From an uncultured Agathobaculum sp. (GTDB lineage Bacteria; Bacillota; Clostridia; Oscillospirales; Butyricicoccaceae), in assembly GCA_944384695.1 (NCBI GenBank), contig CALWUQ010000009.1, forward strand, positions 1,297-33,296: 32,000 nucleotides of DNA, given 5' to 3'. The position numbers and the translations under genes were made by a program. The notes beneath the pieces were generated by a model. The model made no database searches. It was given only the letters and a program-made list of their open reading frames with translations, and was not told the origin of the DNA. Of this stretch, positions 19,490 to 32,000 are shown one piece after another (positions within the stretch are counted from its first letter, which is position 1; every line of letters starts with the position of its first letter).

Positions 19490-19506
19490 GCCGGTTTACA
19501 GGGAAT

Positions 19507-19536
19507 ACAAAAAAGCCCGCCATTGGCGGGCTTTTC
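19507..19536. terminator. rho-independent terminator after tatD (A/T tracts on both sides)
   Basis: AAAAAAAA-GCCCGCC-ATT-GGCGGGC-TTTT, a 7-bp GC stem at 19515-19531. Confidence 0.7.
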
Positions 19537-19539
19537 ACT

Positions 19540-19564
19540 TGGAGCGGATGATGGGAGTCGAACC
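19540..19564 (-). other. orphan tRNA 3'-end fragment (T-loop to CCA), putative att junction; possibly derived from tRNA-Gly
   Basis: The reverse strand reads GGTTCGACTCCCATCATCCGCTCCA: T-loop TTCGACT, T-stem 3' half CCCAT, acceptor 3' strand CATCCGC, U73, CCA. No matching 5' acceptor strand (GCGGATG) or T-stem 5' half follows toward 19616. That DNA instead encodes the integrase C-terminus. Confidence 0.6.
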
Positions 19565-19584
19565 TGTGCAGGGGGCGCAGAGTA

Positions 19585-20628
19585 TCAGGCGTTTTCGGTA
19601 TCTGTGTTGCATTTCGTGTTGCATAATGCTTCAAAATAGCGGTCAATTTGGTCATCAACGGCCTTGCGTTTGTCCGAAAAGGTATGCTGATAGACGGTTT
19701 GCAGCACGGCATTCGTTGACCAGCCGCCGCGCTCCATGGCGTACTTCTCCGGCACGCCCAGCTGCAACATGACCGAGGCGTTTAGATGCCGCAAGTCGTG
19801 AAAGCGCATGTGCGGCAGCCCGGCCTCAGCAATTGCTGCGACAAAGCGGTTATAGATCACCGCGCCGCTTTCCTTGATGATTGGTTCGTTCGGTTTGCCC
19901 TTGCCGATCAGCTGCCGCAGATAGGGCGGCAGGCGCAGCCGTCGCGTGCTGGTGAAAGTCTTGGTCTGCTCGCGCACTTCCTCATGATCGCCGACATGCA
20001 GCACCGTGCGCCGAATCGTCAGAATGTCGCCGCTGATGTCGCCATAGCGCAGGCCGCGCACCTCGCTCATACGCAGCGATAGCCAGAGTGCCAGCAGGGC
20101 GGGCAGCTCGACCGACGTGCCCTGCACGGCATGGATCACCTGCTCGGGTGTAGGCAGGGTACGCAGCCGCCGCTTTTTGGCGGGCAGCGTGACGCGCAGT
20201 CGAAGGTCGGGCGCAAACATGGCGCACGCGGCTGAAATCAGGCCGTAGGCGTTGGCGACAGTTTTCGGCGAGCATTCTACCGCCTCGCGGTTAATTGCGC
20301 TTTGTACGGCCGCTGAGTCCAGCGCAGCGAGAGACAGCTTTTGCAGCGCCCCAAACCGATGCTTGGCAATCGACCGATAGGCCTGTACGGTCGTGGGGGA
20401 AAGCACATGTTCCTTGGAGTCGATGTACTGCTCGATGGCCTGCGCAAGCGTCAGCTCCGCAGCAGTGCCGCCTTTGCGTTTACGGGTGAGGTATTCGCTG
20501 GCCAGAAACTCCGCAGTGCGTTTGTCCGGATCAGTAAAGGATTTGTATTGCCGCTTGCCGGAGGCATCTTTGCCGGTATAGACCAGTACGCGGTAGTTGC
20601 CTGATGGTAATTTCTTTGCTGTTGCCAT
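19585..20628 (-). CDS. site-specific tyrosine recombinase (phage integrase family)
   Basis: 347 aa from ATG 20628, with GGAGG 8 nt upstream. It has an N-terminal arm-binding-like AKKLPSGNYRVLVY..KD..GKR, a core-binding region, and a catalytic region with R (MSEVRGL), HDLRH and the terminal ...YQHT tyrosine. The track ORF starts at 20694, inside a terminator hairpin. Confidence 0.9.
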   Translation of the reverse strand: MATAKKLPSGNYRVLVYTGKDASGKRQYKSFTDPDKRTAEFLASEYLTRKRKGGTAAELTLAQAIEQYIDSKEHVLSPTTVQAYRSIAKHRFGALQKLSLAALDSAAVQSAINREAVECSPKTVANAYGLISAACAMFAPDLRLRVTLPAKKRRLRTLPTPEQVIHAVQGTSVELPALLALWLSLRMSEVRGLRYGDISGDILTIRRTVLHVGDHEEVREQTKTFTSTRRLRLPPYLRQLIGKGKPNEPIIKESGAVIYNRFVAAIAEAGLPHMRFHDLRHLNASVMLQLGVPEKYAMERGGWSTNAVLQTVYQHTFSDKRKAVDDQIDRYFEALCNTKCNTDTENA

Positions 20629-20672
20629 TGCGAAAACCTCCAAAAAGGAACATTTGTTCGGTTTGAGTGGGT

Positions 20673-20717
20673 GAAAAAATGCAGACCACAACAAAACAGT
20701 GTTCGGTTGTGGTCTGC
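20673..20717 (-). terminator. rho-independent terminator (minus strand) between the HTH genes and integrase
   Basis: 12-bp perfect stem GCAGACCACAAC / GTTGTGGTCTGC (20681-20692 / 20706-20717). On the minus strand it is followed by ATTTTTTC. Confidence 0.7.
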
Positions 20718-20726
20718 GGGGTTATT

Positions 20727-20939
20727 TTAGCGCTCAGCTTCATCGGGGATATATTCCATAATATCTCCAGGCTGACAATTTAGAAGCTTACAGAGACGCT
20801 CTATGATTTCGGTAGTAACATATTGATTTTTGATTAGACGATCAACCGAATTTGCGTGAATGCCATTAAGCCGCAACCAATGCTTGTTGACACCTTGTTG
20901 CTCCATCAAGGAGAAAAGCTTTTTGTATGTAATTGGCAT
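20727..20939 (-). CDS. small Cro/C1-type HTH protein (HTH_26-like), paralog 1
   Basis: 70 aa from ATG 20939, after AAGGAGA. The C-terminus ...RLCKLLNCQPGDIMEYIPDE is typical of HTH_26 proteins. The track start at 20945 is a TTG. Confidence 0.75.
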   Translation of the reverse strand: MPITYKKLFSLMEQQGVNKHWLRLNGIHANSVDRLIKNQYVTTEIIERLCKLLNCQPGDIMEYIPDEAER

Positions 20940-20969
20940 GAGCAAGTCTCCTTTATATCTGAAAATGTG

Positions 20970-21197
20970 TTAGTTGTCCTCATCATCAGGAATATATTCC
21001 ATTATGTCTCCGGGTTGACATTGGAAAAGTGCACATAACCTGTTGATGGTCTCGGTGTCAACACGCTGAGTTTTTGATAATTTATCGGATAATACTTTAT
21101 CAAGTATATTCGGATTAAAACCCATTTTGCGCAAATCGTATTTTTTTAGTCCTAATCGCTCCATTTGCTGGGCAACTTTTTTCATAGTAATTGCCAT
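20970..21197 (-). CDS. small Cro/C1-type HTH protein (HTH_26-like), paralog 2
   Basis: 75 aa. The C-terminus ...RLCALFQCQPGDIMEYIPDD is nearly identical to the downstream paralog. It lies 24 nt from paralog 1, so they are probably co-transcribed. Confidence 0.75.
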   Translation of the reverse strand: MAITMKKVAQQMERLGLKKYDLRKMGFNPNILDKVLSDKLSKTQRVDTETINRLCALFQCQPGDIMEYIPDDEDN

Positions 21198-21229
21198 GAA
21201 GAAGTACCTCTATAATTATAGCATAAAAG

Positions 21230-21319
21230 TGTACGAACAATAGTACAAAATATCAACAAAATAATGTACTCAAGTTCGTACAATATCACGATTTACAATA
21301 TTGTACTAACTCTGATACA
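21230..21319. promoter_or_regulatory. three operator-like 18-bp palindromes TGTAC-N8-GTACA
   Basis: O1 at 21230-21247 is TGTACgaacaataGTACA. O2 at 21265-21282 is TGTACtcaagttcGTACA. O3 at 21302-21319 is TGTACtaactctgATACA (one mismatch). Centres are 35 and 37 bp apart. A minus-strand extended -10 (TGCTATAAT, revcomp of 21215-21223) sits just before the paralog-2 start. Confidence 0.55.
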
Positions 21320-21321
21320 AT
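21292..21321 (+). promoter_or_regulatory. candidate plus-strand promoter overlapping O3
   Basis: TTTACA (21292-21297), 18-nt spacer, TGATACAAT, which is an extended -10 with TACAAT at 21316-21321. It points into a 190-nt ORF-free stretch and then the 3' end of the PH-SHOCT gene. Confidence 0.4.
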
Positions 21322-21508
21322 ACACATGGTGATAGCAAGTCACTGTGTGTTCCTTAATAACTCAACAGCAAGGGTGCGCTCCTATGAAGCCAGCGCCGGG
21401 TAGTTGCAGACCGTTAGGTATCCCATAGCGAAGAGTAACAGCAAATGTACATGGCTCAAGTGTGCAAAATGTAGCGCCAAGGAAAGATTAGTTAATAGAT
21501 TCGGTTGC

Positions 21509-22072
21509 TTACAGTCCTAAAATCTGTTTTTTCTTTGCGTCAAATTCTTCTTGAGTTAGCACACCAGCATCCAAGAGTTCTTTTAGCTCATAAAGCAGAC
21601 TAATTTGGTCATCAACTTCCTTTTGCGGGTTAGTTGACTGTGCCTTAGGCGTAGGCTGCTTGAGGTCTACTAAAAGATTATGCAGACGTTCACTAACATT
21701 TTTCGCCTGACTCTTCTCAAGAGCAACTTTAAACTGTTCCCTGATAGTGTCAACTGTGATAGTACCAAGAGCAAGCCCTGAAGAAAATGTAATATCATTG
21801 ATCTGATCGAGCGCAACACTTATCAGGTTTTCTCCAATGAATTTCTTTTGGGCAAGAATAAAACGGCGATTTGTAACAGCATAAGCATAGTTGCCATCGT
21901 GTTTTGACGCGGATTGGTAATTATGTAGACCTTCAAATACGAACAGTACTTGTTCGTCTGGCTGCAATGCGTTTTGGATCAGTGTAAAGTGCTTCATATC
22001 CCAACTTTTCATTGATCCTTGTCCAAGATGATTTGCAACGCAAAACTGAATCATTTCTTCTGCGGTTCGCAT
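21509..22072 (-). CDS. bacterial PH-domain (YokE-like) protein with C-terminal SHOCT domain
   Basis: 187 aa. ...YAYAVTNRRFILAQKKFIGENLISVALDQINDITFSSGLALGTITVDT... matches the YokE-like bPH pattern. The C-terminal LLYELKELLDAGVLTQEEFDAKKKQILG is a SHOCT motif. Confidence 0.8.
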   Translation of the reverse strand: MRTAEEMIQFCVANHLGQGSMKSWDMKHFTLIQNALQPDEQVLFVFEGLHNYQSASKHDGNYAYAVTNRRFILAQKKFIGENLISVALDQINDITFSSGLALGTITVDTIREQFKVALEKSQAKNVSERLHNLLVDLKQPTPKAQSTNPQKEVDDQISLLYELKELLDAGVLTQEEFDAKKKQILGL

Positions 22073-22091
22073 CTTAAATCCCCCTTAAAGA

Positions 22092-22119
22092 TTGACAAAA
22101 TTAGCCAATCTTGTATAAT
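22092..22119 (+). promoter_or_regulatory. near-consensus sigma-A promoter
   Basis: TTGACA (22092-22097), 16-nt spacer, TATAAT (22114-22119). It is divergent from the PH-SHOCT start at 22072. Confidence 0.6.
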
Positions 22120-22125
22120 GGTATT

Positions 22126-22191
22126 GGAGGACTGTGAAACACTCCATCTTTGCCCGTTCCGGTGGTAGCGCACCGGGGCGGGCGCTTTTTT
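22126..22191 (+). ncRNA. candidate ~66-nt small RNA (or leader/attenuator) defined by promoter plus intrinsic terminator
   Basis: 5' hairpin TGGAG(22125-22129)/CTCCA(22142-22146). Terminator hairpin GCCCGUUCCGGUG-GUAGCG-CACCGGGGCGGGC at 22152-22183 has 13 pairs including two G-U, followed by GC and T6 (22186-22191). No SD or start codon lies inside. Confidence 0.45.
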
Positions 22192-22372
22192 ATGGTGTCC
22201 AATTTGAACACCGATATTTTTGATGATATGCAATATATTGATTTACCCTTGCCAAAATCCAAGATGTGGTGTATTATTGAAAATACAAACACTTGTTCGA
22301 TTTTGGGAGGGGTTAGGATGACAGAAAGACAAAAGCGAATGAAAGAACTGCTGATTCAATCAGACGCGGAAA

Positions 22373-22723
22373 TCACTGACCAGATTCTTTCTGCTGTTTT
22401 AGCCAAATTCGGTACTCCGCCTGTTGAATCAAATCGTCCTGATCCTGCTCAGGAAGCTTGTCCATCATTTCCAAAATCTTAATCTGCTTTTCCGTTAACC
22501 CGCTTATATCTTCGGATGTGAGCGGGTTTTTTATATATGTGTTGCCAATCAGGTAATCGGTTGAAACATTAAACAAATTCGCTATTTTACGCAATGTTTT
22601 CCTGTCTGGTTCGAATGTTCCATTTTCCCATCCAGAAACAGTAGACTGCCCAACATTAAGAATTTTGGCGAGTTCAGATTGTTTCATTCCTGCTTCTTTA
22701 CGCAATTGCTTTATGATACGCAC
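22373..22723 (-). CDS. XRE family (cI-like) HTH repressor
   Basis: 116 aa from GTG 22723, after AAGGGGG. It contains the classic HTH_3 segment MKQSELAKILNVGQSTVSGWENG...L.KIA.LF.VS.DYL. Confidence 0.85.
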   Translation of the reverse strand: MRIIKQLRKEAGMKQSELAKILNVGQSTVSGWENGTFEPDRKTLRKIANLFNVSTDYLIGNTYIKNPLTSEDISGLTEKQIKILEMMDKLPEQDQDDLIQQAEYRIWLKQQKESGQ

Positions 22724-22737
22724 ATACTCGCCCCCTT

Positions 22738-22869
22738 ACTGATATTAGTTTAACTGATATTAGAAGGCGTCGCAATGAAATATCTGAAAATATGAAAAAT
22801 TACATTGACATATCAGAAAATATCAGTTATATTAAATATCAGAAATACTAATATATCATAAAATATCAG
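22738..22869. promoter_or_regulatory. operator array of short ATATCAG/CTGATAT repeats in a divergent promoter region
   Basis: ACTGATATTAG occurs twice (22738-22748, 22753-22763). ATATCAG occurs four times in the opposite orientation (22810-22816, 22820-22826, 22836-22842, 22863-22869), with degenerate copies at 22780-22786 and 22853-22859. A minus-strand promoter candidate is TTGCGA-N17-TAAACT (revcomp of 22770-22775 and 22747-22752). Confidence 0.55.
22805..22833 (+). promoter_or_regulatory. rightward (early, PR-like) promoter
   Basis: TTGACA (22805-22810), 17-nt spacer containing two ATATCAG repeats, TATATT (22828-22833). Confidence 0.55.
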
Positions 22870-22887
22870 AAAGGGGGTGAGAGGGTA

Positions 22888-22925
22888 CGAAATTAAAGAA
22901 ACCCCACTTGCGGCTACAAGTGAGG
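22888..22925 (-). terminator. rho-independent terminator (minus strand) after the 97-aa ORF
   Basis: The minus strand reads CCUCACUUG-UAGCCG-CAAGUGGGG, 9 pairs with one G-U that would be a C-A mismatch on the plus strand. TTTCTTTAATTT follows. Confidence 0.6.
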
Positions 22926-22947
22926 TTAAACCAGACTTTCGCCGAAT

Positions 22948-23241
22948 TTACGGAGTGCATGCCATGCATCGCTGCATGGTAGGGCGAGCGTTCACCTTCT
23001 TAACAAAAGATTCAGATGTGCGATTATGTGTAATTGAACCTTCAGGTGTGGCCAGACCGAACGGGCTCAGTTTCTTCAACTGAGCCAGCGCGATCAGTCC
23101 GGAGGATGGCTTGACGAAACTAATTGCACCATCAGCGCTTGTAAATGCGCTGGTAACAGGGCTTGTCAGGCTACTCTTCACTACGGTCGAACGCAGCGAA
23201 GTGATAGCACCGGACATGATATCATTCTTCGTCGCGTTCAT
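22948..23241 (-). CDS. hypothetical Ser/Thr-rich 97-aa protein with C-terminal CxxC
   Basis: ATG 23241 is preceded by GGAGAAAT, and a strand-specific terminator lies 23 nt after the stop. A candidate promoter is TTGCGT-N17-TATACT (revcomp of 23431-23436 and 23408-23413). No family recognised. Confidence 0.45.
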   Translation of the reverse strand: MNATKNDIMSGAITSLRSTVVKSSLTSPVTSAFTSADGAISFVKPSSGLIALAQLKKLSPFGLATPEGSITHNRTSESFVKKVNARPTMQRCMACTP

Positions 23242-23473
23242 ATTTCTCCAAATTTGTTACCCATAAGTGGGGCTGCGTCATTTCTGCGCAGCTCTCACGG
23301 TCGCCCGTGAGTTCAGACTGTGCCTTCAACCACGAGGGTTGCTCCGTGTCCAGTCGTTACACCTTCCGCATCAGCGGCTTGGCTCGGCGTTATCTGGTTG
23401 TGATGTCAGTATACAACACGAACAGGGAAAACGCAAGCAACGTTCGGATATGGGAGAGAGGAGGTGAGAGGGG

Positions 23474-23701
23474 ATGGAACAAGAGTTTGACGAGCGCTTT
23501 TGGGTATGTGTCTCACGCCATTGCGTAGCCGCGCATGAAAGCGCATGCGAGAAAACGCCCGTACACTGGGGAGAAATCTGTGCGTCATGCCAGTATGTCC
23601 ACCAGTGCTACAAGACAGGAAACGACGGTTATTGGCCGACAGCCAATGCCATTTTAAGAAAGAAAAGCGGCATTGGCTGTCAATTTGCGCGGATGAAGTA
23701 G
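23474..23701 (+). CDS. hypothetical Cys-rich 75-aa protein
   Basis: Strong SD GGAGGTGAGAGG precedes ATG 23474. Seven Cys including CxxC (CASCQYVHQC). No family recognised. Confidence 0.6.
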   Translation: MEQEFDERFWVCVSRHCVAAHESACEKTPVHWGEICASCQYVHQCYKTGNDGYWPTANAILRKKSGIGCQFARMK

Positions 23702-23703
23702 GA

Positions 23704-23913
23704 TTAGTAAACAGATTTTTGATAAACCGGGCATTCGAAACCTTCTTGAGATGCTCCGGGGCACTCGCCTATCGCGCGAGCGCTACAAAGGTAGGTTGAT
23801 TTGTCGTAGTAAGTTCCGGTGTCTCCACATACTTCTATCTTTTCAAACTCAACTCGGACAGACACCGGTTTTTTACTCAGCGGGCAACTACAGCGATAGG
23901 TTTTTGAAACCAT
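23704..23913 (-). CDS. hypothetical Cys-rich 69-aa protein
   Basis: ATG 23913 is preceded by GGAAGGAGGTGGAAC. Six Cys (CxC...C...C...C...C). Convergent with the previous gene, with stops 2 nt apart. The track start at 23946 lies upstream of the SD. Confidence 0.6.
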   Translation of the reverse strand: MVSKTYRCSCPLSKKPVSVRVEFEKIEVCGDTGTYYDKSTYLCSARAIGECPGASQEGFECPVYQKSVY

Positions 23914-23928
23914 AGTTCCACCTCCTTC

Positions 23929-23956
23929 CTGCTTCCATGGTAACACATGGAAGCAG
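23929..23956. repeat. perfect 11-bp inverted repeat with 6-nt spacer in a divergent intergenic region
   Basis: CTGCTTCCATG-gtaaca-CATGGAAGCAG, lying between the starts at 23913 (-) and 23989 (+). Confidence 0.7.
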
Positions 23957-23988
23957 AGGGGGCAAGGAGTGATAGGGAGGTGAGAGGA

Positions 23989-24261
23989 ATGGACAAGAAA
24001 GTGTTAAAAGAATTGCGGAACATGAAAAAAAGAATTGATGTGCTGGAACGCAACCAGACAGCACCGTCTTATTACTTTGGCGAGATGAATCTCGCAGGAG
24101 TAGTTCGCATGGTTGAAACATTAACGAAAACCAGACAGAAAAAAGAAATAGCGTCTCCTAAAATCGAAAAACGAGCAGATGTTGCTTTTGTGGCATCGAT
24201 TGCGGCGTTGATCTGCGGAATTATCGCACTCTGTCTGAGAGTATTTGAACTATTCCTGTAA
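23989..24261 (+). CDS. hypothetical tail-anchored small membrane protein
   Basis: ATG 23989 lies after GGGAGGTGAGAGG. 90 aa with a charged coiled N-part and a single C-terminal hydrophobic helix VAFVASIAALICGIIALCLRVF. Confidence 0.6.
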   Translation: MDKKVLKELRNMKKRIDVLERNQTAPSYYFGEMNLAGVVRMVETLTKTRQKKEIASPKIEKRADVAFVASIAALICGIIALCLRVFELFL

Positions 24262-24327
24262 TTGCTGCCAGCGTACTGAAGAAAAGAGTAAGTCTTTTGT
24301 AGTACATGGAACGAGAAGCGATAAGGA

Positions 24328-24507
24328 GGTGAGCGCTTGGATCAATCCTTGCAATTTCATGATGAAATCATCTTGAGATTTAGGCAGGGTCGATTGCAGG
24401 AAGTCATTATCGACGGTATACGGCAAAATGATGTGAAAGCCTTTTCGATTGCGGCATCTCCGACGCAAGTCGCTTCCTACCTGATTGAGCATTCGACCGT
24501 ATATTCA
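24328..24507 (+). CDS. hypothetical 59-aa protein (TTG start; below the track length cut-off)
   Basis: Own translation gives (M)DQSLQFHDEIILRFRQGRLQEVIIDGIRQNDVKAFSIAASPTQVASYLIEHSTVYSDS. TTG 24328 lies 6 nt after AAGGAGGTGA (24314-24323). Confidence 0.5.
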
Positions 24508-24544
24508 GATTCCTAAGAACAAGAACCGGAAAGGGGTGAATAAC

Positions 24545-24745
24545 ATGAAAACCATCAAGCGATACCGCGAAGAGCGCGGCATCAAGCAGATCGAGCTTGC
24601 GGCGCACTTCGGTGTATCTCAGCCGACGGTTGTCAGATGGGAGCAGGAGGGTGTGTACCCACCCTGTCAAGTGATGCCTGAGCTTGCGGCCTTTCTCGGC
24701 TGCACGACCGATGAACTGTATGAAACGAAAAAGGAGGTGAGCTAA
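24545..24745 (+). CDS. Cro-like XRE family HTH protein
   Basis: 66 aa from ATG 24545, after AAAGGGGTGA. Contains IKQIELAAHFGVSQPTVVRWEQ, an HTH_3-type motif. Confidence 0.8.
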   Translation: MKTIKRYREERGIKQIELAAHFGVSQPTVVRWEQEGVYPPCQVMPELAAFLGCTTDELYETKKEVS

Positions 24746-24746
24746 G

Positions 24747-24968
24747 TTGAGCAAACAGGGTGATTTGCAATTCGTTGCAAACCTTGAGAAGTATCGTGTT
24801 TTGTCGGGGCTGCCGGATCACACAGCGCTTGCCAAGCGCATCATGGTATCGCGGCAGCTACTGCACCGACGATTGGAGCAGCCGGGCAATCTGACTGTTA
24901 ACGAACTGCGCCGGATTTCGACTGTGCTGGGCATGCCCGCAGAGGAAATGCTGTCACTGTTCAAGTGA
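24747..24968 (+). CDS. small HTH-like protein
   Basis: TTG 24747 lies 6 nt after AAGGAGGTGA. 73 aa with HTALAKRIMVSRQLLHRRLEQPGNLTVNELRRISTVLGM, resembling an XRE/HTH fold. Confidence 0.55.
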   Translation: MSKQGDLQFVANLEKYRVLSGLPDHTALAKRIMVSRQLLHRRLEQPGNLTVNELRRISTVLGMPAEEMLSLFK

Positions 24969-25006
24969 TGGGTGCATTATACCATGAAAAAAGGAGGTGA
25001 ACCAGT

Positions 25007-25474
25007 GTGTGTGAGTACCGGAATATCTATCAAACCGCGCGTTTGAATACCGGTTTTACGCAGGAATTCGTATCGGAGCGCATTGGTATTTCTGTTGAAA
25101 GCCTGCGAAAATATGAGACGGGGCAGCGAAGGCCACCGGATGCCGTTGTTTGGCGTATGGCGACGTTGTATAGTTCCATGCTCTTGTGCTACCAGCATCT
25201 TGCGTCGGGTGAGTTGGGAGGCATGTTGCCGGACGTGCGGCAAAAGTCGCTTGAGCAGGCAACACTGCGTTTTGTGCGCCTGTTCGGCGAGTTTGCCAAG
25301 AGCGGCCATCTGGATCAGCTGATGGAGATCAACGAGGACGGCATCATCACAGCAGAAGAGCGTCCACTGCACGACGCAATCATGGCGGAGCTGCAAGAAC
25401 TCACGACGACATATCTCGAACTGGGCTGTGCCGCACAAAAAGAAAGCGCCCAGTGCGGCGGCAACCGCGACTGA
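25007..25474 (+). CDS. XRE family HTH protein with ~90-aa C-terminal extension
   Basis: GTG 25007 lies 6 nt after AAGGAGGTGA. The N-terminus has FTQEFVSERIGISVESLRKYETGQRRP. The C-terminal domain is unrecognised. Confidence 0.75.
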   Translation: MCEYRNIYQTARLNTGFTQEFVSERIGISVESLRKYETGQRRPPDAVVWRMATLYSSMLLCYQHLASGELGGMLPDVRQKSLEQATLRFVRLFGEFAKSGHLDQLMEINEDGIITAEERPLHDAIMAELQELTTTYLELGCAAQKESAQCGGNRD

Positions 25475-25556
25475 GCGCAAATAAAATTGAACTTACTTAC
25501 AGGATACCGGAAAAGCCCGGCGCTGTCAAGAGGCCGCGCCGGGGGAAAGGGAAAAC

Positions 25557-25757
25557 ATGAAACTCGTAGAGGTGAAATTTGAGATCCCAGAGGATCTGGA
25601 GCCGCGCATTGCGGCGTTAGCTGCGGAAATGGGGCTATCTTTTGATTTGGCCGCGCAACTACTGCTGTGGGACGGATTTGTCACGCATTTGCGCAGCTCG
25701 ATTGAGCGGGCGGAACAAGAACTGCGAGAGCCGTTAGCGGAGGAGGTGGCGGTATGA
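25557..25757 (+). CDS. hypothetical acidic 66-aa protein
   Basis: ATG 25557 lies after GGGGGAAAGGGAAAAC. High-GC codon usage matches its neighbours. Confidence 0.5.
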   Translation: MKLVEVKFEIPEDLEPRIAALAAEMGLSFDLAAQLLLWDGFVTHLRSSIERAEQELREPLAEEVAV

Positions 25758-25861
25758 TCTACGCCATCCTTGCCATGCTCGGGGTGGGCTGCGCCTACCT
25801 CGCCCTTGGCATGCTGGTGGACAGGCTCACCCAGCCGATGGAACGGAGGGGACGGCGGTGA
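25754..25861 (+). CDS. hypothetical 35-aa single-pass membrane peptide
   Basis: Own translation gives MIYAILAMLGVGCAYLALGMLVDRLTQPMERRGRR. ATGA overlap with the upstream stop, and GGAGGAGGTGG SD upstream. Confidence 0.4.
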   Translation: MIYAILAMLGVGCAYLALGMLVDRLTQPMERRGRR

Positions 25862-25892
25862 GCGTGCCGGACAAGAAGGGAGGCGGCGTATT

Positions 25893-26621
25893 ATGCCAAG
25901 GCCGAGCTATTTTTCAATTCTGACAGCAGACGTGCGCTATGACACAGGTCTGTCTGACTTTGCAAAGCTGCTGTACAGCGATATTACCGCGCTGTGCAAC
26001 AAGAAGGGCTACTGTGACGCGACCAACGACTATTTCGCCACGCAGTTTGGCAAATCCAAGCGCACGATCAGTGCGACCGTGGGCGCACTCGCAGACGCGG
26101 GTTATATCTGCATCGAAGTCGAGCGGGACGCAAGCAACGCGGTCGTGGCACGCAAAATCTGGGTGCAGGCAAACGCCCGTGCCGCTGCGGAAAAGGTGCA
26201 GACCCCTATAGAAGAAAATTTCCATAGGTATAGAGAAAAACTTCCTGACCCTATGGAAGAAAACTTCTACCAATATAATAGGAAGAATAATACAAGTAAG
26301 AATAATACCCCTATAGTCCCCAAAGGGGACGACGGGCTGTTCGATGAATTCTGGGCGGCTTACCCGAAGCACGTTGCAAAGCAACCGGCGCGACGGGCAT
26401 TCGATCGGCTGAAGCCTGACAGGGCGCTGCTGGACAAGATGCTGGCGGCCTTGCAGTGGCAGAAGCAGACCGAAAGCTGGCAACGGGACAGTGGCCGCTA
26501 TGTACCAAACCCCGCGACATGGCTCAATGCCCGCCGCTGGGAGGACGAGCCGGAGGGCAGTCCCACGCCGCCCAAACCGTCCAAGCCGACCAAAGAGGAA
26601 CGGAGGTATGAGCATTGGTAA
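25893..26621 (+). CDS. phage replication initiator / replisome-organizer-like protein
   Basis: ATG 25893 lies after GGGAGG. The N-terminal winged-HTH-like region is SYFSILTADVRYD..LS..AKLLYSDITALCNKKGYC.ATNDYFA..FG.S.RTIS..V..L. The C-terminal FDEFWAAYPK...YVPNPATWLNARRWEDE block is common in phage replication proteins. Confidence 0.75.
   Translation: MPRPSYFSILTADVRYDTGLSDFAKLLYSDITALCNKKGYCDATNDYFATQFGKSKRTISATVGALADAGYICIEVERDASNAVVARKIWVQANARAAAEKVQTPIEENFHRYREKLPDPMEENFYQYNRKNNTSKNNTPIVPKGDDGLFDEFWAAYPKHVAKQPARRAFDRLKPDRALLDKMLAALQWQKQTESWQRDSGRYVPNPATWLNARRWEDEPEGSPTPPKPSKPTKEERRYEHW
26203..26316. repeat. iteron-like direct repeats in an AT-rich patch inside the replication gene (candidate origin)
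   Basis: CCTATAGAAGAAAATTTC (26205-26222) and CCTATGGAAGAAAACTTC (26250-26267) share 16 of 18 positions. CCCCTATAG occurs at 26203-26211 and again at 26308-26316. AAGAATAATA occurs twice (26283-26292, 26298-26307). There is an imperfect inverted repeat CCTATAGAA/TTCCATAGG. Confidence 0.5.
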
Positions 26622-27376
26622 AAGCGACACTCGACGCAGAGTACAGCGTGATCGGCTGCCTACTGGTTGACCCGTCGATCGCGGGCGAAATGCTGTACCG
26701 CACGCGGCCGGAGGACTTCACCGTTCCCGAGCTGCGCACGGTGTACAATGCCGCGGTCAAGCTGTTTGGTGCCGGGCGGCCGGTGGACGCGGTCACGATC
26801 CGCGGCGTGTGTGGCGCGGAGTATAACGACCTGCTGATGCAGTGCATGGATGTCACACCGACCTCGTTCGGCTGGCGCACCTACATATCCGCCATGCAGG
26901 AGCAGACACGGGTCACCCGGCTGCGGGCGCTGGCTGCCGAGCTTGCCGAGGTGCGCACAAGCGATAAGGCGCGCGATCTGCTCGGACAGGCAGGCGAGAT
27001 TTTGAGCGAAAAGAACCGCACGCAGGTCGTGACCATGCAGCAGGCGCTCGTGCAGTTTTTCAGCGAGCAAGGCGAAAAACGCCGCTTTCTCAGTTGGGGC
27101 TTTGATAAGCTCGACCGACGGCTGTATACAGACTACGGCGATTTTGTGATAGTTGCGGGACGTCCGTCCGCGGGCAAGACTGCGCTTGCCTTGCAGATGG
27201 CGTCGCACATGGGGCGGCAGGACAAGGTCGGCTTTTACAGCCTTGAGACCAGCACTGCCAAGCTGACCAACAGATTGGTTGCGAGCCGCTGTATCATCGA
27301 CTTCGGCCATATCAACCGCCGCGAGATGACGCCCGAGGAGTGGGAGCGCGCAGCTAAGTGGAAAAAAAAGTCTTAG
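26615..27376 (+). CDS. DnaB-like replicative helicase, N-terminal portion (through Walker A), ends at TAG just after an A8 run
   Basis: TTG 26615 lies 8 nt after GGAGG. It has a DnaB N-domain-like LDAEYSVIGCLLVDPS and the Walker A VAGRPSAGKTALAL. The zero frame reads TGG AAA AAA AAG TCT TAG. Confidence 0.8.
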   Translation: MVKATLDAEYSVIGCLLVDPSIAGEMLYRTRPEDFTVPELRTVYNAAVKLFGAGRPVDAVTIRGVCGAEYNDLLMQCMDVTPTSFGWRTYISAMQEQTRVTRLRALAAELAEVRTSDKARDLLGQAGEILSEKNRTQVVTMQQALVQFFSEQGEKRRFLSWGFDKLDRRLYTDYGDFVIVAGRPSAGKTALALQMASHMGRQDKVGFYSLETSTAKLTNRLVASRCIIDFGHINRREMTPEEWERAAKWKKKS

Positions 27377-27885
27377 AAAGCAAGCTGGAGCTGATTCCCG
27401 CGTCCGGTTGGGGCGTACAGGACATTCTGGCGACCGCGCTGGCGCGGCAGCACCGGGTCGTGTTTGTCGACTATTTGCAGCTCATTCGTGCGGCCGGGCG
27501 CAACCGTACCGAACAGGTGACCAACATTTCGCTTGCGCTGCACGAGATGGCGCAGGCACACGGCATTCTGGTCGTCGCACTCAGTCAACTTAATCGCGCC
27601 AGCACGGATCGCGCGGACGCAACGCCTACGCTGGCTGATCTGCGCGAGTCAGGCCAGATCGAGCAGGATGCGGACGCGGTGCTTGCACTGTACATCGACC
27701 CGGATGAGGATGCGCCCATGGACGACCGCAAGCTGCGGGTGCTCAAGAACAAAGAGGGACGGCTGGGCGATTTCTCACTCGCGTTCGACGGCTCGACACA
27801 GAGTTTTGCGGAATACATGGACGGGCAGCTTGCCGCCGCTCGGCAGATCAAGAAAATGGGGAAGAAAACCGACGCATCCGCGTAA
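27358..27885 (+). CDS. DnaB-like replicative helicase, C-terminal portion (Walker B onward), in the -1 frame
   Basis: VVFVDYLQLI (Walker B), ALSQLNR, LADLRESGQIEQDAD and the RecA-like C-terminus. It continues ORF 26615..27376 after a -1 shift in the A run. Confidence 0.8.
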   Translation: MEKKVLESKLELIPASGWGVQDILATALARQHRVVFVDYLQLIRAAGRNRTEQVTNISLALHEMAQAHGILVVALSQLNRASTDRADATPTLADLRESGQIEQDADAVLALYIDPDEDAPMDDRKLRVLKNKEGRLGDFSLAFDGSTQSFAEYMDGQLAAARQIKKMGKKTDASA

Positions 27886-27904
27886 CGAAAACGGAGGTAC
27901 ATAC

Positions 27905-28168
27905 ATGAGCAAGATGAAAAAGATTCGTCTCTGCCTTGAGGTGCAAGGCCTCGGGCAGGACGATTTGGGCACGCCATGCCCTGCGGGTGTCTGTCTGACG
28001 CTGGGCGACGAGGACGCCGAGGAAATGACTGGCGCGGAGTACGAAACATTTTTGCAGCAGGTCAAGATCGAAGAAGTGTTGCGGCTGGTCTGCCTTGATA
28101 AGCTGTACACCCCGGCAGACTGCCGCCTGATGATGCCGGACGAGTACGACCGGAAATATGGGGAGTGA
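27905..28168 (+). CDS. hypothetical 87-aa protein
   Basis: ATG 27905 lies after ACGGAGGTAC. It is the in-frame tail of track ORF 27533..28168, whose upstream part overlaps the helicase. Confidence 0.5.
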   Translation: MSKMKKIRLCLEVQGLGQDDLGTPCPAGVCLTLGDEDAEEMTGAEYETFLQQVKIEEVLRLVCLDKLYTPADCRLMMPDEYDRKYGE

Positions 28169-28174
28169 GAGCAA

Positions 28175-28975
28175 ATGAAAACCATCAGCATTGTGAATTT
28201 GAAAGGCGGCGTCGGCAAGACGGTGACGGCGGTCAACCTTGCGGCGATCCTCGCCACCGAGTACAATGCGCGCGTGTTGCTGATCGACGCTGACCATCAG
28301 GGCAACGCCAGCCGATTCTACCGCATCCCGGCCGAGCCGGGCACGCTCGCCGACCTGTTTGAGGGCATGTGCCTGTGCTATGCCGACCTTGTCCAGCACA
28401 CGATTTACCGCGGGCTGGATGTCATTCCGGCGGACATGTCGCTCGCGGCGCTCGACCTTGACGGCAGTCTGCCGGGGGATGTAAACGGTGGCACGCCGCG
28501 TGACCGTGCGCTGCGCGTGCTGACCGACCTGCGTGACGCGGTCATCGAGGACGACGCCTATGATTATCTCGTCATCGACTGCCCGCCCGCGTTTTCGGTC
28601 GCGTCCATCAGCGCGGTCGCGGCGTCGAGCGACATCGTTATCCCAGTCAAGCCGGGTGCGTTCGAGATCGACGGCATGGCCGAGCTGCTGCGTCAGATTG
28701 ACGGCATCCGGCGCGTTAACGGCGCGGTGCAGGTGGGCGTGCTGCTGACCATGTGGCACAACGCGGATGTGGTCCGGCAGGGCGAGGACTGGCTGCGGGC
28801 AAATTGCCCTGTGCCGGTATTCGAGACCCGCATCCGGCGCACGGATAAGGTGGACGAAAGCACCTTTGCGCGCGAGCCGGTCTGCCAGTGGTCACCGACC
28901 TCGGCCGCTGCGCGCGATTACCGCGCGTGGGTGCGCGAGTATCTGGGAGGTGGCGCAGATGGCGCGGAAACTTGA
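28175..28975 (+). CDS. parA: ParA/Soj-type partition ATPase
   Basis: MKTISIVNLKGGVGKTVTAVNLAAILA is a deviant Walker A. LIDADHQGN and DYLVIDCPP are also present. Confidence 0.9.
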   Translation: MKTISIVNLKGGVGKTVTAVNLAAILATEYNARVLLIDADHQGNASRFYRIPAEPGTLADLFEGMCLCYADLVQHTIYRGLDVIPADMSLAALDLDGSLPGDVNGGTPRDRALRVLTDLRDAVIEDDAYDYLVIDCPPAFSVASISAVAASSDIVIPVKPGAFEIDGMAELLRQIDGIRRVNGAVQVGVLLTMWHNADVVRQGEDWLRANCPVPVFETRIRRTDKVDESTFAREPVCQWSPTSAAARDYRAWVREYLGGGADGAET

Positions 28976-30662
28976 TATTGGGGCGATGCTCGGCGACACG
29001 GTGTCCAAATTGAACACCATGCAGGTGCGTGAGATCGCGCTAAGTCAGCTCGAGGAAAACCCGGACAACTCCTATGCGCAGACCGGCATCGATGAGCTGG
29101 CCGAGTCGATTGAGGTAGTCGGTTTGCAGCAGCCGCTGGTGGTTGTGCCGGTGGAGGACGGCCGCTTTCGCATTCTTGCAGGTCACCGGCGGCGCAATGC
29201 GCTGGAAAAGCTGGAGCGCAAAACCGCGCCGTGCGTCGTGCTGGATGCCGACCTCGACCCGTCGCTGCGCGTGCTGATCCTGCACTGGACGAACACCATG
29301 GCACGAGGCGGCGCTGGCCTGACGGCTGAAAACACCTTTGCTGCCGCCAAGGAGATTAAGGAGGCGCTGGTCGACCTCAAGCAGCGCGGCGTGCTCGAGC
29401 TGCCGGGCAAGCTGCGCACTTATGTCGCGGACGTGCTCAAGGTGAGCGAAGCCGCAATCGCGCGGGCGGACGCGATAAATGCGCACCTATCGAAGGCGTG
29501 GAAGGGCGACTACAAAAAAGCCATCATCAACGATTCGGTCGCCTATGAGCTGAGCCAGTGCGATGACGAACTGCAGCGCGAGCTGCACGACCTGTACAAG
29601 GGGGAGATGTGGGGGTTAGACGCCAAAAAAGTCAAAGCACACAAAAAGGCCGCGGCTGCGGGCTTTGCGCCGTTGCAATGCCCAGCGGCGCAGTACGGCA
29701 TCCAGCCGTGTGTCGGCACGGACAAGCGCGCCGCGGCGGTCAAGCGCGGCGAATGCCTCGGCTGCTGCCACGACTGCGACAAGGCGGACGGCTGCGAGTG
29801 GGTGTGCGGCCCAGTCAGTAAAGCGAATCACGCCCGCATTCTGGCTGAGGAGCAAGAGAAAACACGCAAGCAGGAAAACGAGGCGTTCGAGGCATCGCCA
29901 CTTGGCAAGCTGCGGCGCCACATGCGAGAGACACTTGCAGTGTATGGCGTACATAGCAATGCCGATTTACCGGGCAGTTTGTATGGCTATGGCGCATGGA
30001 TTTGGACGAACAACCCGGCTGCGACCAGCCCGACCGGCATACAATCTATGCAGCGTATTGCAGATCATATTGGCATCGACCTGCAGGAGCTGCTGTTCGG
30101 CAACCCGGAGGGCGCGCCGCTGCGCCAGCTGGACGAGCAGATGCAGCAGGCGACCGCCGAGCCCATGCTCGCAGCACCATCCATCCCGGAAGTGCCCGAT
30201 ACCATCATCACCGCAGGCAAGGAAACGTGCCTGCCATGCGCGGCGTGGTTTTCGCCTGATGTGCTGCCGCCGGATGGTGCGCGCATCATTGCGCAGGATC
30301 GGGACGGGTTTGTCGATGAAGGGAAGTTCCTTGGCGGAGGACTAGATTCGGTCATCATGGAGTGGGATGAGGTTGTCCGCTGGACTCTCCACCCGGACGA
30401 CGAGGCGTACACCGAGCCGGTGCAGCAGGCGGTGCAGGAGCCGCAGCCCGCGCCGGTCTGGCACCCGTACCCGGTCGAGGAGCCGGACGAGGGACAGACA
30501 GTGCTGACGCTCACACACAACAACGAATTAAACGTAAATACTTATGACGTATATGTCTATCGCGAGGGAGCATGGTATCTTCCCGATATACCGCTCGATG
30601 TTGAGACGGAGGTGGATGTTAGCTGGTGGTCGGCAGAGCTGCCGCCGGAGGTAGTCAAATGA
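28959..30662 (+). CDS. ParB N-terminal-domain protein with Cys-cluster and long C-terminal extension
   Basis: ATG 28959 lies after GGGAGGTGG and overlaps the parA end. The ParB/Srx region is SQLEENPDN...ELAESIEVVGLQQPLVV...ILAGHRRRNA. There are 8 Cys in 46 residues (~29676-29812). The C-terminus has two W..P...G..V......W-type segments reminiscent of DUF551. Confidence 0.8.
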   Translation: MARKLDIGAMLGDTVSKLNTMQVREIALSQLEENPDNSYAQTGIDELAESIEVVGLQQPLVVVPVEDGRFRILAGHRRRNALEKLERKTAPCVVLDADLDPSLRVLILHWTNTMARGGAGLTAENTFAAAKEIKEALVDLKQRGVLELPGKLRTYVADVLKVSEAAIARADAINAHLSKAWKGDYKKAIINDSVAYELSQCDDELQRELHDLYKGEMWGLDAKKVKAHKKAAAAGFAPLQCPAAQYGIQPCVGTDKRAAAVKRGECLGCCHDCDKADGCEWVCGPVSKANHARILAEEQEKTRKQENEAFEASPLGKLRRHMRETLAVYGVHSNADLPGSLYGYGAWIWTNNPAATSPTGIQSMQRIADHIGIDLQELLFGNPEGAPLRQLDEQMQQATAEPMLAAPSIPEVPDTIITAGKETCLPCAAWFSPDVLPPDGARIIAQDRDGFVDEGKFLGGGLDSVIMEWDEVVRWTLHPDDEAYTEPVQQAVQEPQPAPVWHPYPVEEPDEGQTVLTLTHNNELNVNTYDVYVYREGAWYLPDIPLDVETEVDVSWWSAELPPEVVK

Positions 30663-30982
30663 ACCTGTCCGACTGCACAAAGGCCGATTTGCTATGGATC
30701 ATCAAAGCAATGTGCAAATATGACTTATCTGATCTCAGTCTGCAACGGGCCTTAAATGATCTGGAATGGGAGAAGGAGCAGGATCGGCTTGCCCGTGCGG
30801 ATCAGGCGCTTCAAACCGCATCTGCCGCGTCACAGCGGTATATCGAATTGCTCAAACCGTATGAGGGCATGCCACTCATAGAGGTGCCGATGGACGTTTT
30901 GCAGCAGGCGGACGCTGCACTGGCCGAGTCGCGCGCCGCGAATAAGCAGTGGGCGAAGTTGATGGGAGTGAAAATGAAATGA
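30659..30982 (+). CDS. hypothetical 107-aa protein
   Basis: ATG 30659 overlaps the upstream TGA (ATGA). GGAGGTAG SD upstream. Predicted helical, no family recognised. Confidence 0.5.
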   Translation: MNLSDCTKADLLWIIKAMCKYDLSDLSLQRALNDLEWEKEQDRLARADQALQTASAASQRYIELLKPYEGMPLIEVPMDVLQQADAALAESRAANKQWAKLMGVKMK

Positions 30983-31578
30983 GCCTAAAGCCGATCTTGT
31001 TTGACACCGAAATGGTGCGCGCGCTGCTGGAAGGTCGAAAAACGGTCACCCGGCGGGTGGTGAAGCCGCAGCCGGTGCTGGACGGCCATCTTTGGAAGCT
31101 GGGTGGCGCAGCGTGGAGCGACAGCGTGCTGTCCGTTCCTGTGATGCTTGGGCATAGCCTGTATAATCGCGCGCCATACCAGCCCGGTGATGTGCTGTGG
31201 GTGCGGGAGACGTGGCAAGTACAGCGTGGCGGCGGTTATATGTATATGGCTGATATGATCTGGCCATTCTGCACATCCATAACGCCAGACTGGAGGTGTG
31301 TACCTGATATTCCATGGAAACCATCAAATCATATGCCCCGCGAAGCTGCCCGCATCTTCCTGCAGGTGACCGACGTTCGGTGTGAACGGCTACAGGAGAT
31401 CACGTCCGATCAAATAGACGCAGAGGGTTTCAAAGGCGATCTGTCATGGTTTCAAATCGATTGGGATAGTGCTATCAAACCCATCGACTTTGACAGGTAT
31501 GGCTGGGAAGCAAACCCTTGGGTGTGGGTGATCGAATTCGAGCGGATTGGTAGAGAGGAGGCGAAACCCACTAAATGA
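30979..31578 (+). CDS. ASCH/PUA-like domain protein commonly linked to phage methylases
   Basis: ATG 30979 overlaps the upstream TGA. KPILFDTEMVRALLEGRKTVTRR, GDVLWVRETW and HMPREAARIFL.VTDVR.ERLQEIT match this phage family pattern. Confidence 0.6.
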   Translation: MSLKPILFDTEMVRALLEGRKTVTRRVVKPQPVLDGHLWKLGGAAWSDSVLSVPVMLGHSLYNRAPYQPGDVLWVRETWQVQRGGGYMYMADMIWPFCTSITPDWRCVPDIPWKPSNHMPREAARIFLQVTDVRCERLQEITSDQIDAEGFKGDLSWFQIDWDSAIKPIDFDRYGWEANPWVWVIEFERIGREEAKPTK

Positions 31579-32000
31579 ACATGGCTTACAATATGGATTG
31601 CATGGAGTACATGCGGACATTACCGGACAAGGCGTTTGATTTAGCTTGTGTTGATCCCATGTACGGTATAGGCGAAAATGGTGCAAAGTCCGGAAGTCGT
31701 GCAAAGTTAGCCAAACGAATAGATTATAAACCAGTGTGTGATGATCCGCCAACGGAGGAGTATTTTGCGGAGCTCTTTCGTGTGTCAAAACATCAAGTGA
31801 TTTGGGGAGCAAACCATTTTATAGCTGCATTTGGCAAAAATGCTTCATGTTGGCTTGTGTGGGATAAAAACAATGGCGATACGAATTATGCAGATTGTGA
31901 ACTTGCATGGACAAGTTTTCCGGGAGCTGTAAGAAAGTTTAAGTATTTGTGGGCTGGAATGCGGCAGGAACGGCAAGGGAAAAATCATCAATTTCGCATC
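31575..32000 (+). CDS. DNA methyltransferase (N6_N4 MTase, beta-class), 5' partial; continues beyond window
   Basis: Own translation gives MNMAYNMDCMEYMRTLPDKAFDLACVDPMYGIGE...FRVSKHQVIWGANHF.... DPMY is a variant of the DPPY catalytic motif. The ATG overlaps the upstream TGA. Confidence 0.85.
   Translation, partial: MNMAYNMDCMEYMRTLPDKAFDLACVDPMYGIGENGAKSGSRAKLAKRIDYKPVCDDPPTEEYFAELFRVSKHQVIWGANHFIAAFGKNASCWLVWDKNNGDTNYADCELAWTSFPGAVRKFKYLWAGMRQERQGKNHQFRI

Follow-up and report, generated by a model that had tools for sequence, protein, structure and literature searches.

A candidate family of cis-antisense small RNA genes carried as a portable module 5' of prophage accessory genes in gut Clostridia

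A full consensus promoter, closely followed by an intrinsic terminator and pointing away from the gene beside it, raises the question of what is transcribed from it and what the transcript would serve. Such a unit lies at 22092-22191 of the window, which is the whole 32,000-nt stretch of DNA analysed here. The surrounding genes make up the lysogeny and early part of a prophage-like element, and the unit is located in the arm between repressor and integrase. The leftward arm was composed of a tyrosine integrase gene, two HTH_26 genes, the PH-SHOCT gene and the XRE gene. To the right, a strong promoter at 22805 amid ATATCAG repeats and small HTH genes were found, followed by genes for a replication initiator, a DnaB-like helicase, ParA and a ParB-like protein. 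Most genes of the element matched phage protein families, and the G+C content was 39% at 21000-23000 and 56-63% in host DNA. When 21400-23000 was searched by blastn against the INPHARED phage genomes, a single match of 59 nt was obtained, inside the SHOCT region. Regulatory RNAs in prophages of strictly anaerobic gut Clostridia are almost unknown, and the present RNA is absent from Rfam.

A preliminary description of this DNA had placed the unit in a 300-nt gap between an XRE repressor gene and a PH-SHOCT gene. Both flanks were confirmed with Pfam and the gap was indeed 300 nt, with the -35 box 19 nt from the PH-SHOCT start codon. The PH-SHOCT gene and the genes that occupy its place in other loci are called cargo genes below. 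The coordinates of the features are collected in Table 1.

Table 1. Features of the small RNA unit and of its surroundings in the window.
Feature	Position	Strand	Remarks
Tyrosine integrase gene	19585-20694	leftward	
Cargo gene, bPH_3 + SHOCT protein, 187 aa	21509..22072	-	Pfam; PHROG families of unknown function
Leader and RBS of cargo gene	22073..22091	-	SD AAGGGGG 22086->22080; ATG 22072->22070
Dyad GATTGAC-N7-GCCAATC	22090..22110	.	overlaps -35 and spacer
Sigma-A/sigma-70 consensus promoter	22092..22119	+	-35 TTGACA 22092-22097; 16-nt spacer; -10 TATAAT 22114-22119
Predicted small RNA, ~64-66 nt	22126..22191	+	start inferred 7-8 nt past -10; 3' end in U-run
Predicted 5'-terminal hairpin	22126..22145	+	GGAG 22126-22129 pairs with CUCC 22142-22145; bulge and loop variable
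Intrinsic terminator	22151..22191	+	14-pair stem 22151-22184; 6-nt hypervariable loop; C; T6 22186-22191
54-codon ORF	22318-22482	+	strong SD; hydrophilic 54-aa product; part of XRE module
XRE/CI-like (HTH_3) repressor gene	22373..22723	-	Pfam; PHROG repressor families

The TTGACA-N16-TATAAT promoter that had been reported here proved to be exact, with a score of 12/12. Its two hexamers stand at a distance within the 16-18 nt of sigma-70/sigma-A promoters, and TTGACA-N16-18-TATAAT had a single occurrence in the 32-kb window, both strands taken together, and none in 100 dinucleotide-preserving shuffles. The early proposal had been made to depend on the conservation of promoter and hairpins in related elements, and such conservation was found. 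Among 20 distinct copies ascertained without the promoter, being retrieved by protein or by terminator only, the -10 TATAAT was kept in all and the -35 TTGACA in 19, and the same two-hairpin fold was predicted in homologues. The spacer was 16 nt long in all 20 of these copies, in which 11 spacer sequences and 10 discriminator sequences were present. The promoters of three diverged copies (L018, L204 and L310) each scored 12/12 as well, with L018 and L310 retrieved by patterns containing the hexamers and L204 alone retrieved without them. One copy, L134, had a degraded -35 and no adjoining gene start. An invertible promoter (inverton) was considered and rejected: no flipped copy was seen, the orientation being identical in all of the 20-odd copies retrieved by terminator only, and the flanking repeats were only about 6 bp long.

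The GC-rich hairpin with T6 described downstream of the -10 was also present. Its stem begins 31 nt past the -10 and, with G·U counted, consists of 14 pairs, of which 10 are G-C, so a G+C-rich stem-loop followed by a U-run on the transcribed strand, as is typical of intrinsic terminators, could be recognized. The predicted RNA (22126-22191/2) would fold into the 5' hairpin, a 5-nt linker and the terminator hairpin, with -33.9 kcal/mol and z = -4.1 to -4.5; none of 200 shuffles was as stable. The two-hairpin shape was also predicted in seven other homologues (z = -3.1 to -6.0), and in L018 an unrelated 7-bp hairpin occupied the position of the 5' hairpin. No alternative antiterminator fold was seen when the RNA was folded. 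Rfam 15 gave no match in the whole window at gathering thresholds. At E<=10, four chance matches were obtained in 21900-22600, none of them overlapping the RNA; one of these, to snoU6-53 (22020-22098), reaches only the -35. For ctRNA_pT181, the sole match in the window was located elsewhere and reached 19 bits against a threshold of 56 bits, which is at the level of chance.

In one point the preliminary description has to be corrected. It had stated that neither a Shine-Dalgarno sequence nor a start codon lies between promoter and terminator, while an SD-like GGAGG (22126-22130) and a GTG at 22134 open an ORF of 29 codons (22134-22223) which crosses the terminator and is not conserved. A coding role was rejected for this ORF and for the minus-strand ORFs across the module, which were broken among homologues by 1- and 2-nt indels located in the bulge and in the linker. 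Since these indels break every ORF on both strands, the module is non-coding.

The limits of the unit could be drawn from contigs which carried an identical PH-SHOCT or XRE protein (exact-protein look-up) and were aligned to the window. In six XRE loci with other downstream genes (e.g. T5orf172), homology stopped at 22192, the base after the T-run, and the RBS of the downstream gene was situated 15-18 nt from the XRE module. In L007 and L011 the match ran from 22892 down to 22070, with the promoter-to-terminator unit and the RBS kept and a different cargo protein behind them. The unit of L010 was 90% identical and lay between two accessory genes, and in L001 the PH-SHOCT gene, the unit and 22192-22311 were fused to another XRE module. 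Homology ended with the T-run on one side and gave out on the other at the RBS or ATG that belongs to the divergent gene, the leader and RBS at 22073-22091 being the left edge in most loci. From these sharp breaks the conserved piece was delimited as the RBS and the -35 to the T-run. As judged from the alignments, the unit is a discrete, portable module of about 100-120 bp, composed of the RBS of the left gene, the head-on promoter, the small RNA and the terminator. Of the 20 loci listed, most had 19-20 nt between the cargo start codon and the -35; the distance was 15 nt in L018, and 28 nt at the integrase copies when the start of the longest ORF was taken. T5orf172 and a 179-aa gene occupied the same slot without the module, thus the module is dispensable for expression there. 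A phage moron cassette was rejected, because the cargo gene has both promoter and terminator on its 5' side, each directed away from it.

The module was found in a restricted range of hosts and elements. Thirty-six distinct sequences of close variants were aligned, from Agathobaculum, Butyricicoccus and Oscillospiraceae genomes, metagenomes and IMG/VR viral contigs. A genome scan with the hexamers and the 5' arm as anchor gave 16 true homologues among 109 matches, mainly from Agathobaculum, Butyricicoccus and Oscillospiraceae assemblies, and Agathobaculum sp. Marseille-P7918 carried at least two copies on different contigs. In viral contigs the first exact-spacer pattern had no match; terminator-only scans revealed the full unit on two IMG/VR viral contigs and about 20 metagenome contigs. 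The left-hand genes were of at least nine kinds, PH-SHOCT, Ltp-type, BRCT and HSDR_N genes, lipoprotein genes and integrase among them. The Ltp-type genes encode membrane proteins or lipoproteins with 2-3 Lipoprotein_Ltp repeats, which belong to the superinfection-exclusion family of phage TP-J34 (PMC3952083). The terminator bordered on the XRE module, or on the stop codon of a further leftward cargo gene or of an ImmA-like gene.

When 151 IMG/VR loci with Ltp or PH-SHOCT genes were scanned generically for an antisense promoter with a terminator behind it upstream of the gene, one hit was obtained, which was L204; the same scan gave none on the sense strand and none in shuffles. With only one of the 151 loci carrying the unit, the module is lineage-restricted and not a general requirement of these morons. 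An HMM search of 154 Ltp/PH-SHOCT loci returned L204 and otherwise only weak terminator-like matches. L204 is a diverged homologue from a low-G+C phage, with TTGACA, 16 nt containing GCCAAT, and TATAAT, then a GGGGUU/AACUCC 5' hairpin and a terminator of 12-13 pairs which has CCGUUC in common with the window; it is flanked by the stop codon of an ImmA-like metalloprotease gene on one side and by an Ltp-type lipoprotein gene on the other. L310 is a second diverged copy of the L204 kind and L018 another diverged copy, and five further terminator-anchored matches shared the hairpin sequence alone.

Base pairing in these copies indicated which strand is read. Taken as plus-strand RNA, the terminator stems of the 36 variants had 372 Watson-Crick, 93 G·U and 3 mismatched cells, with 2-3 G·U pairs in each variant; taken as minus-strand RNA, the same stems had 372 Watson-Crick, 1 G·U and 95 mismatched cells. 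The search pattern did not constrain two of the stem positions and did not extend to a third; all three were occupied exclusively by bases able to pair in the plus-strand RNA. The preliminary description had read the unit as an independent source of a short RNA with two hairpins which, if XRE and PH-SHOCT are co-transcribed, is antisense to the gap between them. In its core this is upheld by the conservation that runs exactly from promoter to terminator, by the hexamers kept in copies retrieved without them, by full pairing on the plus strand only and by pair changes on both sides in diverged homologues. Its expectation that homologues would conserve the hairpins with compensatory changes held in part. 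The close family alone had no both-sided pair changes; with the diverged members included, 7 of 17 pairs had them (3 of the 4 pairs of the 5' hairpin and 4 of the 13 of the terminator) and 99.2% of cells paired. Shuffles gave 1.1 ± 0.9 such pairs (0 of 500 reached the observed number) and slid controls 0-3. The alignment behind these counts was made with a covariance model and is fitted to the structure, hence supportive and not decisive. The maintenance of pairing in the 5' hairpin, together with the hairpin in the unrelated L018 sequence, points to selection on the RNA itself. Within family A, which is closely related, the 5' hairpin sequence was more conserved than pure cis-antisense action would need. 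By these comparisons the feature is real and conserved.

What the RNA could act on depends on how the cargo gene is transcribed. A single minus-strand promoter match of at least 9/12 was obtained between XRE and the cargo gene; it scored 9/12 (22098->22071) and is unusable for the cargo gene because its -10 overlaps the cargo start codon. Manual reading of the minus strand over 22073-22372 gave no better candidate for a cargo promoter, and no minus-strand terminator was found between the two genes. As no usable cargo promoter was found in the 19 nt up to the -35, the cargo mRNA would have to start upstream and cross the module. In loci without the module, the cargo RBS directly adjoins the XRE module (at 22192), which leaves no room for a separate promoter. 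The cargo slot is most simply taken to be expressed by read-through from the repressor operon. The RNA gene lies on the opposite strand between two same-strand genes, the layout of scr4677 and GadY; in other loci its neighbours were two cargo genes, or an ImmA-like and an Ltp-type gene. The RNA overlaps no ORF of the flanking genes, nor the RBS or start codon of the cargo gene. Since these sites are not covered, a simple block of translation is unavailable.

The leader of the cargo gene contains the dyad listed in Table 1, whose arms were conserved and centre variable, and which was perfect in L018 and L131. One possibility is an operator that covers the -35, the other a hairpin of 9 bp formed in the minus-strand leader just ahead of the cargo SD. 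If it is an mRNA hairpin, cleavage directed by an RNA duplex could leave a stabilised cargo mRNA. The leader hairpin 5' of the cargo SD is AU-rich and without U-run (fold z = -1.6). Attenuation of the pT181 type was rejected as not evident, this being the only leader hairpin after the target region.

To the reading that 22092-22191 is probably a constitutive gene for a non-coding RNA of about 65 nt, which would uncouple cargo from repressor by cis-antisense pairing and head-on interference, we give an even chance. The RNA is most likely a real and uncatalogued antisense regulator, and the unit is best described as belonging to a putative new family of cis-encoded antisense small RNA genes, forming a portable module 5' of prophage accessory genes. 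In this scheme temperate phages of gut Clostridia would have a leftward lysogeny operon with the order repressor or ImmA, accessory genes, integrase, and the module would occupy gaps between its cistrons. In a read-through cargo mRNA, 65 nt would be perfectly complementary to the RNA; this stretch would begin just past the upstream stop codon or the XRE module and end about 54 nt short of the cargo start codon. An abundant countertranscript would pair in cis with this intercistronic leader, and the small-RNA promoter would fire head-on against the incoming polymerase; the two together would uncouple cargo expression from that of the repressor. The likely route would be RNase III-type cleavage or destabilisation of the duplex and/or transcriptional interference, meanwhile the strong terminator would confine antisense transcription and shield the upstream gene. 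The effect on the cargo might go in either direction, repression or processing versus stabilisation. We infer from the sequence that the RNA is expressed in vivo, that one transcript spans repressor and cargo and that the RNA pairs with the leader.

Several known RNAs have a comparable arrangement. GadY of E. coli is a cis-antisense RNA from the gadX-gadW intercistronic region, and RNase III-dependent cleavage there uncouples the cistrons; it overlaps the 3' UTR of the upstream gene and stabilises that gene, depends on RpoS and associates with Hfq. The window RNA resembles it as a predicted intercistronic cis-antisense RNA within a polycistronic mRNA, while no homology exists between the two. 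Sar of phage P22 is an antisense RNA of about 69 nt whose promoter lies in the arc-ant intercistronic region, and it covers the RBS of ant and blocks translation. It is likewise an intercistronic antisense RNA of a phage immunity operon, but in the window the RBS is outside the RNA and lies under the promoter. The plasmid countertranscripts RNAI/II of pT181 and RNAIII of pIP501 are transcribed from a strong constitutive promoter inside the target leader and consist of 60-150 nt with stem-loops and a terminator. They are complementary to the leader upstream of the RBS and induce a rho-independent attenuator just 5' of rep. A strong and probably constitutive promoter inside the leader, a predicted RNA of this size with stem-loops and a terminator, and complementarity upstream of the RBS are shared with them, whereas the leader in the window has no evident attenuator.

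The nearest layout was found in scr4677 of S. coelicolor, an opposite-strand small RNA in the gap between co-transcribed genes, which starts a few nt upstream of the start codon of the downstream gene and runs away from that gene (PMC3896431). It affects the transcripts of the adjacent gene, with RNase III involved (PMC3896431). The opposite-strand position in the intergenic region between same-strand genes is common to both, and the sequences are unrelated. In addition, scr4677 is chromosomal, whereas the window RNA is on a mobile element, portable and paired with many unrelated genes; the start site of scr4677 is 14 nt from the start codon, against 19 nt for the -35 and about 54 nt for the start site in the window. 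An OOP-like layout had also been suggested earlier. It stands loosely, in that lambda OOP and OOP-like RNAs are short prophage antisense RNAs from the immunity region with their own promoter and an intrinsic terminator (PMC7067206). It does not stand for the target, as OOP overlaps the 3' end of cII (PMC7067206) and the window RNA overlaps no coding sequence. Membership in the OOP type was accordingly rejected: 22126-22191 overlaps no flanking ORF, and there was neither homology nor an Rfam match. STnc6030 of the Salmonella prophage BTP1 is a 786-nt RNA antisense to structural genes which acts on superinfecting phage (PMC7067206), and the likeness would consist in a prophage-expressed antisense RNA with an accessory function in the lysogen. 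With OOP, P22 sar, the plasmid countertranscripts and type I antitoxins, only the general idea is common to the window RNA.

A wider role can be proposed with considerably more doubt. The module of about 120 bp might be a portable "antisense-gated adaptor" that defines the accessory cassettes between repressor and integrase, serving as a swap joint and as a post-transcriptional gate, and this we regard as a speculative, rather improbable extension. A swap joint for unrelated defence or exclusion genes is suggested by homology breaking exactly at both module ends; as a gate, it would turn read-through of the repressor operon into a separately set expression of the cargo. If real, the unit would show in what way genes for superinfection exclusion and defence, inserted between repressor and integrase, are both expressed and kept insulated, and would represent a compact part of promoter, RNA and terminator that evolution has reused with many genes. 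It could also serve as a sequence marker for accessory-gene slots in metagenomic prophages. Its value would be that of a well-delimited, testable new family of antisense RNAs; no long-standing open question is touched.

Other explanations of the same unit were weighed. It might be a transcriptional insulator, in which the act of head-on transcription, and not the RNA, throttles read-through of the repressor operon by collision or occlusion, and the terminator keeps antisense transcription and plus-strand read-through out of the upstream gene. We hold this for a minor possibility. It would agree with the hexamers and the spacer length as the most strictly kept features, with a terminator that is present in every copy and directly adjoins the upstream cistron, and with a hypervariable terminator loop and no trans target found. 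The 5' hairpin argues against it: its pairing is maintained through G·U and both-sided changes, and in L018 a hairpin is in place although the sequence is unrelated. Interference and antisense pairing are not mutually exclusive. The strict placement beside a gene start would be left unexplained if the RNA acted in trans, as a lysogenic-conversion gene whose 5' region (GGAGG...CACUCC) targets mRNAs of the host or of competitor phages. Such a role seems unlikely, even with a 5' region well conserved within family A, a consensus promoter that predicts high expression, at least two copies in Agathobaculum sp. Marseille-P7918, and the same hairpin sequence in the 5' coding part of an early gene of other elements (L129, L143 and L147), which would complement the 3' half of the RNA. 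When the 5' 28 nt were compared by RNAduplex with both strands of 19500-32000, the result was no better than with 30 shuffled queries, the best duplex elsewhere in the element (-23.5 kcal/mol) being inside the shuffled-query range of -21 to -29. Furthermore, the 5' region was wholly different in L018 and largely different in L204 and L310, while position and shape were kept.

The alternative named in the preliminary description, a leader or attenuator, would have the promoter serve a downstream plus-strand gene (the 54-codon ORF) or XRE antisense, with the terminator as a site of regulated read-through. In that case the read-through might be governed by translation of the GTG-initiated ORF. 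GGAGG and GTG just past the start site, the ORF that crosses the terminator, and the plus-strand ORF with a strong SD that follows in the window would be in line with it. It is nevertheless very improbable and was abandoned: in at least ten loci (L010, L028, L092, L096, L120, L139-L145, L149, L204 and L310) only the 3' end of a minus-strand gene lies past the terminator, which abuts the stop codon of that gene, and no plus-strand gene comes after. The 54-codon ORF has its own promoter P2 and occurs in loci without the small-RNA module, the frame of the leader ORF is broken by indels, and no antiterminator fold was seen; the 54-aa product and its analogues had no Pfam or PHROG match. A type I antitoxin-like RNA guarding a toxic neighbour, likewise suggested before, shares antisense orientation, strong promoter and prophage location with the unit. 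It can hardly be maintained, as the neighbours are large and diverse, namely proteins of 176-359 aa from unrelated families plus integrase, and not small hydrophobic peptides; no coding sequence or RBS is overlapped by the RNA, and the sole small ORF nearby, the 54-codon ORF, is hydrophilic and a member of the XRE module. Chance juxtaposition, or a decayed remnant without present function, might be read from L134 with its degraded -35 and no adjoining gene start. For the unit as a whole it is scarcely plausible, with a promoter unique in the window and found in 0 of 100 shuffles, hexamers kept in independently ascertained copies and scoring 12/12 in diverged low-GC homologues, and strand-specific pairing.

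Returning to the cis-antisense reading, a possible origin of the module was given by three loci of another class (class B: L129, L143 and L147), in which the hairpin is inside the 5' coding region of a gene for 112-132 aa that follows an excisionase-like gene. An RNA of class B would cover the start codon and the first ~40 codons, which is the classical immunity-type antisense arrangement, and this suggests that the module studied here may be derived from an immunity-type antisense regulator like that of class B. The minus-strand coding region of these loci is real, with its N-terminus (ARPxAGTPERA) conserved and a 3-nt indel that keeps the frame; promoter-like hexamers were kept on its antisense strand.

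The position downstream of the repressor-like XRE gene, which holds the PH-SHOCT gene in the window, is a hot spot where accessory or defence genes are swapped. Downstream of an identical XRE gene, gene content differed by contig (window 22073-22372 versus L007-L016, L120 and L010, loci among the compared sequences from other genomes, metagenomes and viral collections), and the slot was occupied by PH-SHOCT, Ltp-type, T5orf172/MUG113, BRCT, a 179-aa gene or others. The next gene after the slot encoded either a tyrosine or a serine recombinase, depending on the contig. In the window, two small paralogous HTH_26 genes separated the integrase gene from the cargo gene. The related contigs L001-L004 had one or two copies of such a gene, and the compared elements with a serine recombinase had none.

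The terminator loop of the predicted small RNA gene beside the slot (22165-22170) was hypervariable among homologues and occurred as a few discrete alleles (GTAGCG, GTGGTG, CGTCAC, CATCAC, GTAGAG and others). Since these alleles did not follow the identity of the cargo gene, the sequence comparison points to recombination inside the RNA gene itself.

A 19-bp palindrome, GGTGTCCAAWTTGAACACC, was found in two copies in the window by a search with its 17-bp core, for which 0.18 matches were expected by chance. One copy (22194-22212) was directly 3' of the T-run of the RNA gene, on the boundary of the XRE module, and the other (29000-29018) was within the first codons of a ParB-like gene, whose start is likely ATG 28959. 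The palindrome may serve as a parS or ParB-binding site, and the cargo insertion point, 22192, immediately adjoins its first copy.

A second + strand transcription unit was predicted inside the XRE module, at 22249-22535 (see table). The same layout was observed in L001, whose XRE module is non-homologous, and L105 carried a third version. The small ORFs of all three gave no match in Pfam or PHROG. The + strand unit may provide an antisense RNA or a small protein against the repressor.

Features of the XRE-module unit, its counterpart in L001, and the HTH_26 genes
Feature	Position	Strand	Remark
Promoter TTGCCA-N17-TATTAT	22249-22277	+	XRE-module unit
SD GGGAGGGG	22305-22312	+	precedes 54-codon ORF
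54-codon ORF	22318-22482	+	antisense overlap with final 36 codons of XRE
Terminator, 14 pairs	22497-22528 plus T-run	+	within XRE coding sequence
L001 48-codon ORF	1838->1692		counterpart of 54-codon ORF
L001 terminator	1653->1634		within L001 XRE gene
Two paralogous HTH_26 genes	20727-20945 and 20970-21197	-	between integrase and cargo gene

Between XRE and the rightward genes, the divergent promoters, among them the 11/12 promoter at 22805, were surrounded by repeated ATATCAG/CTGATAT motifs (22738-22872), and a comparable site was located at 22212-22228, upstream of the promoter of the 54-codon ORF. These sites are likely XRE operators.

The hairpin GCCCGTYCCGGTG-N6-CACYGGGGCGGG of the RNA gene also occurred inside the 5' coding region of an early gene of 112-132 aa in L129 (5552-5944), L143 and L147, where its other strand encoded ARPxAGTPERA. 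Promoter-like hexamers on the antisense strand were kept in these three diverged sequences, and the region is a candidate for a small RNA antisense to the start of the early gene.

In L051 and L095, where the RNA gene neighbours the integrase gene, the interval between the two holds a perfect inverted repeat of 13 bp, CTGCAGACCACAA...TTGTGGTCTGCAG, located 45 nt upstream of the -35 box. On the minus strand the repeat is followed by TTTT, and it is a possible terminator for that strand. After the RNA gene, L084 and L103 show a related string, GGTGTTCGGTTGTGG. The DnaB-like helicase of the window (26615-27885) was carried by two overlapping ORFs, 26615-27376 and 27358-27885. The split may mean that the gene carries a frameshift or is a pseudogene, or may reflect a sequencing error.
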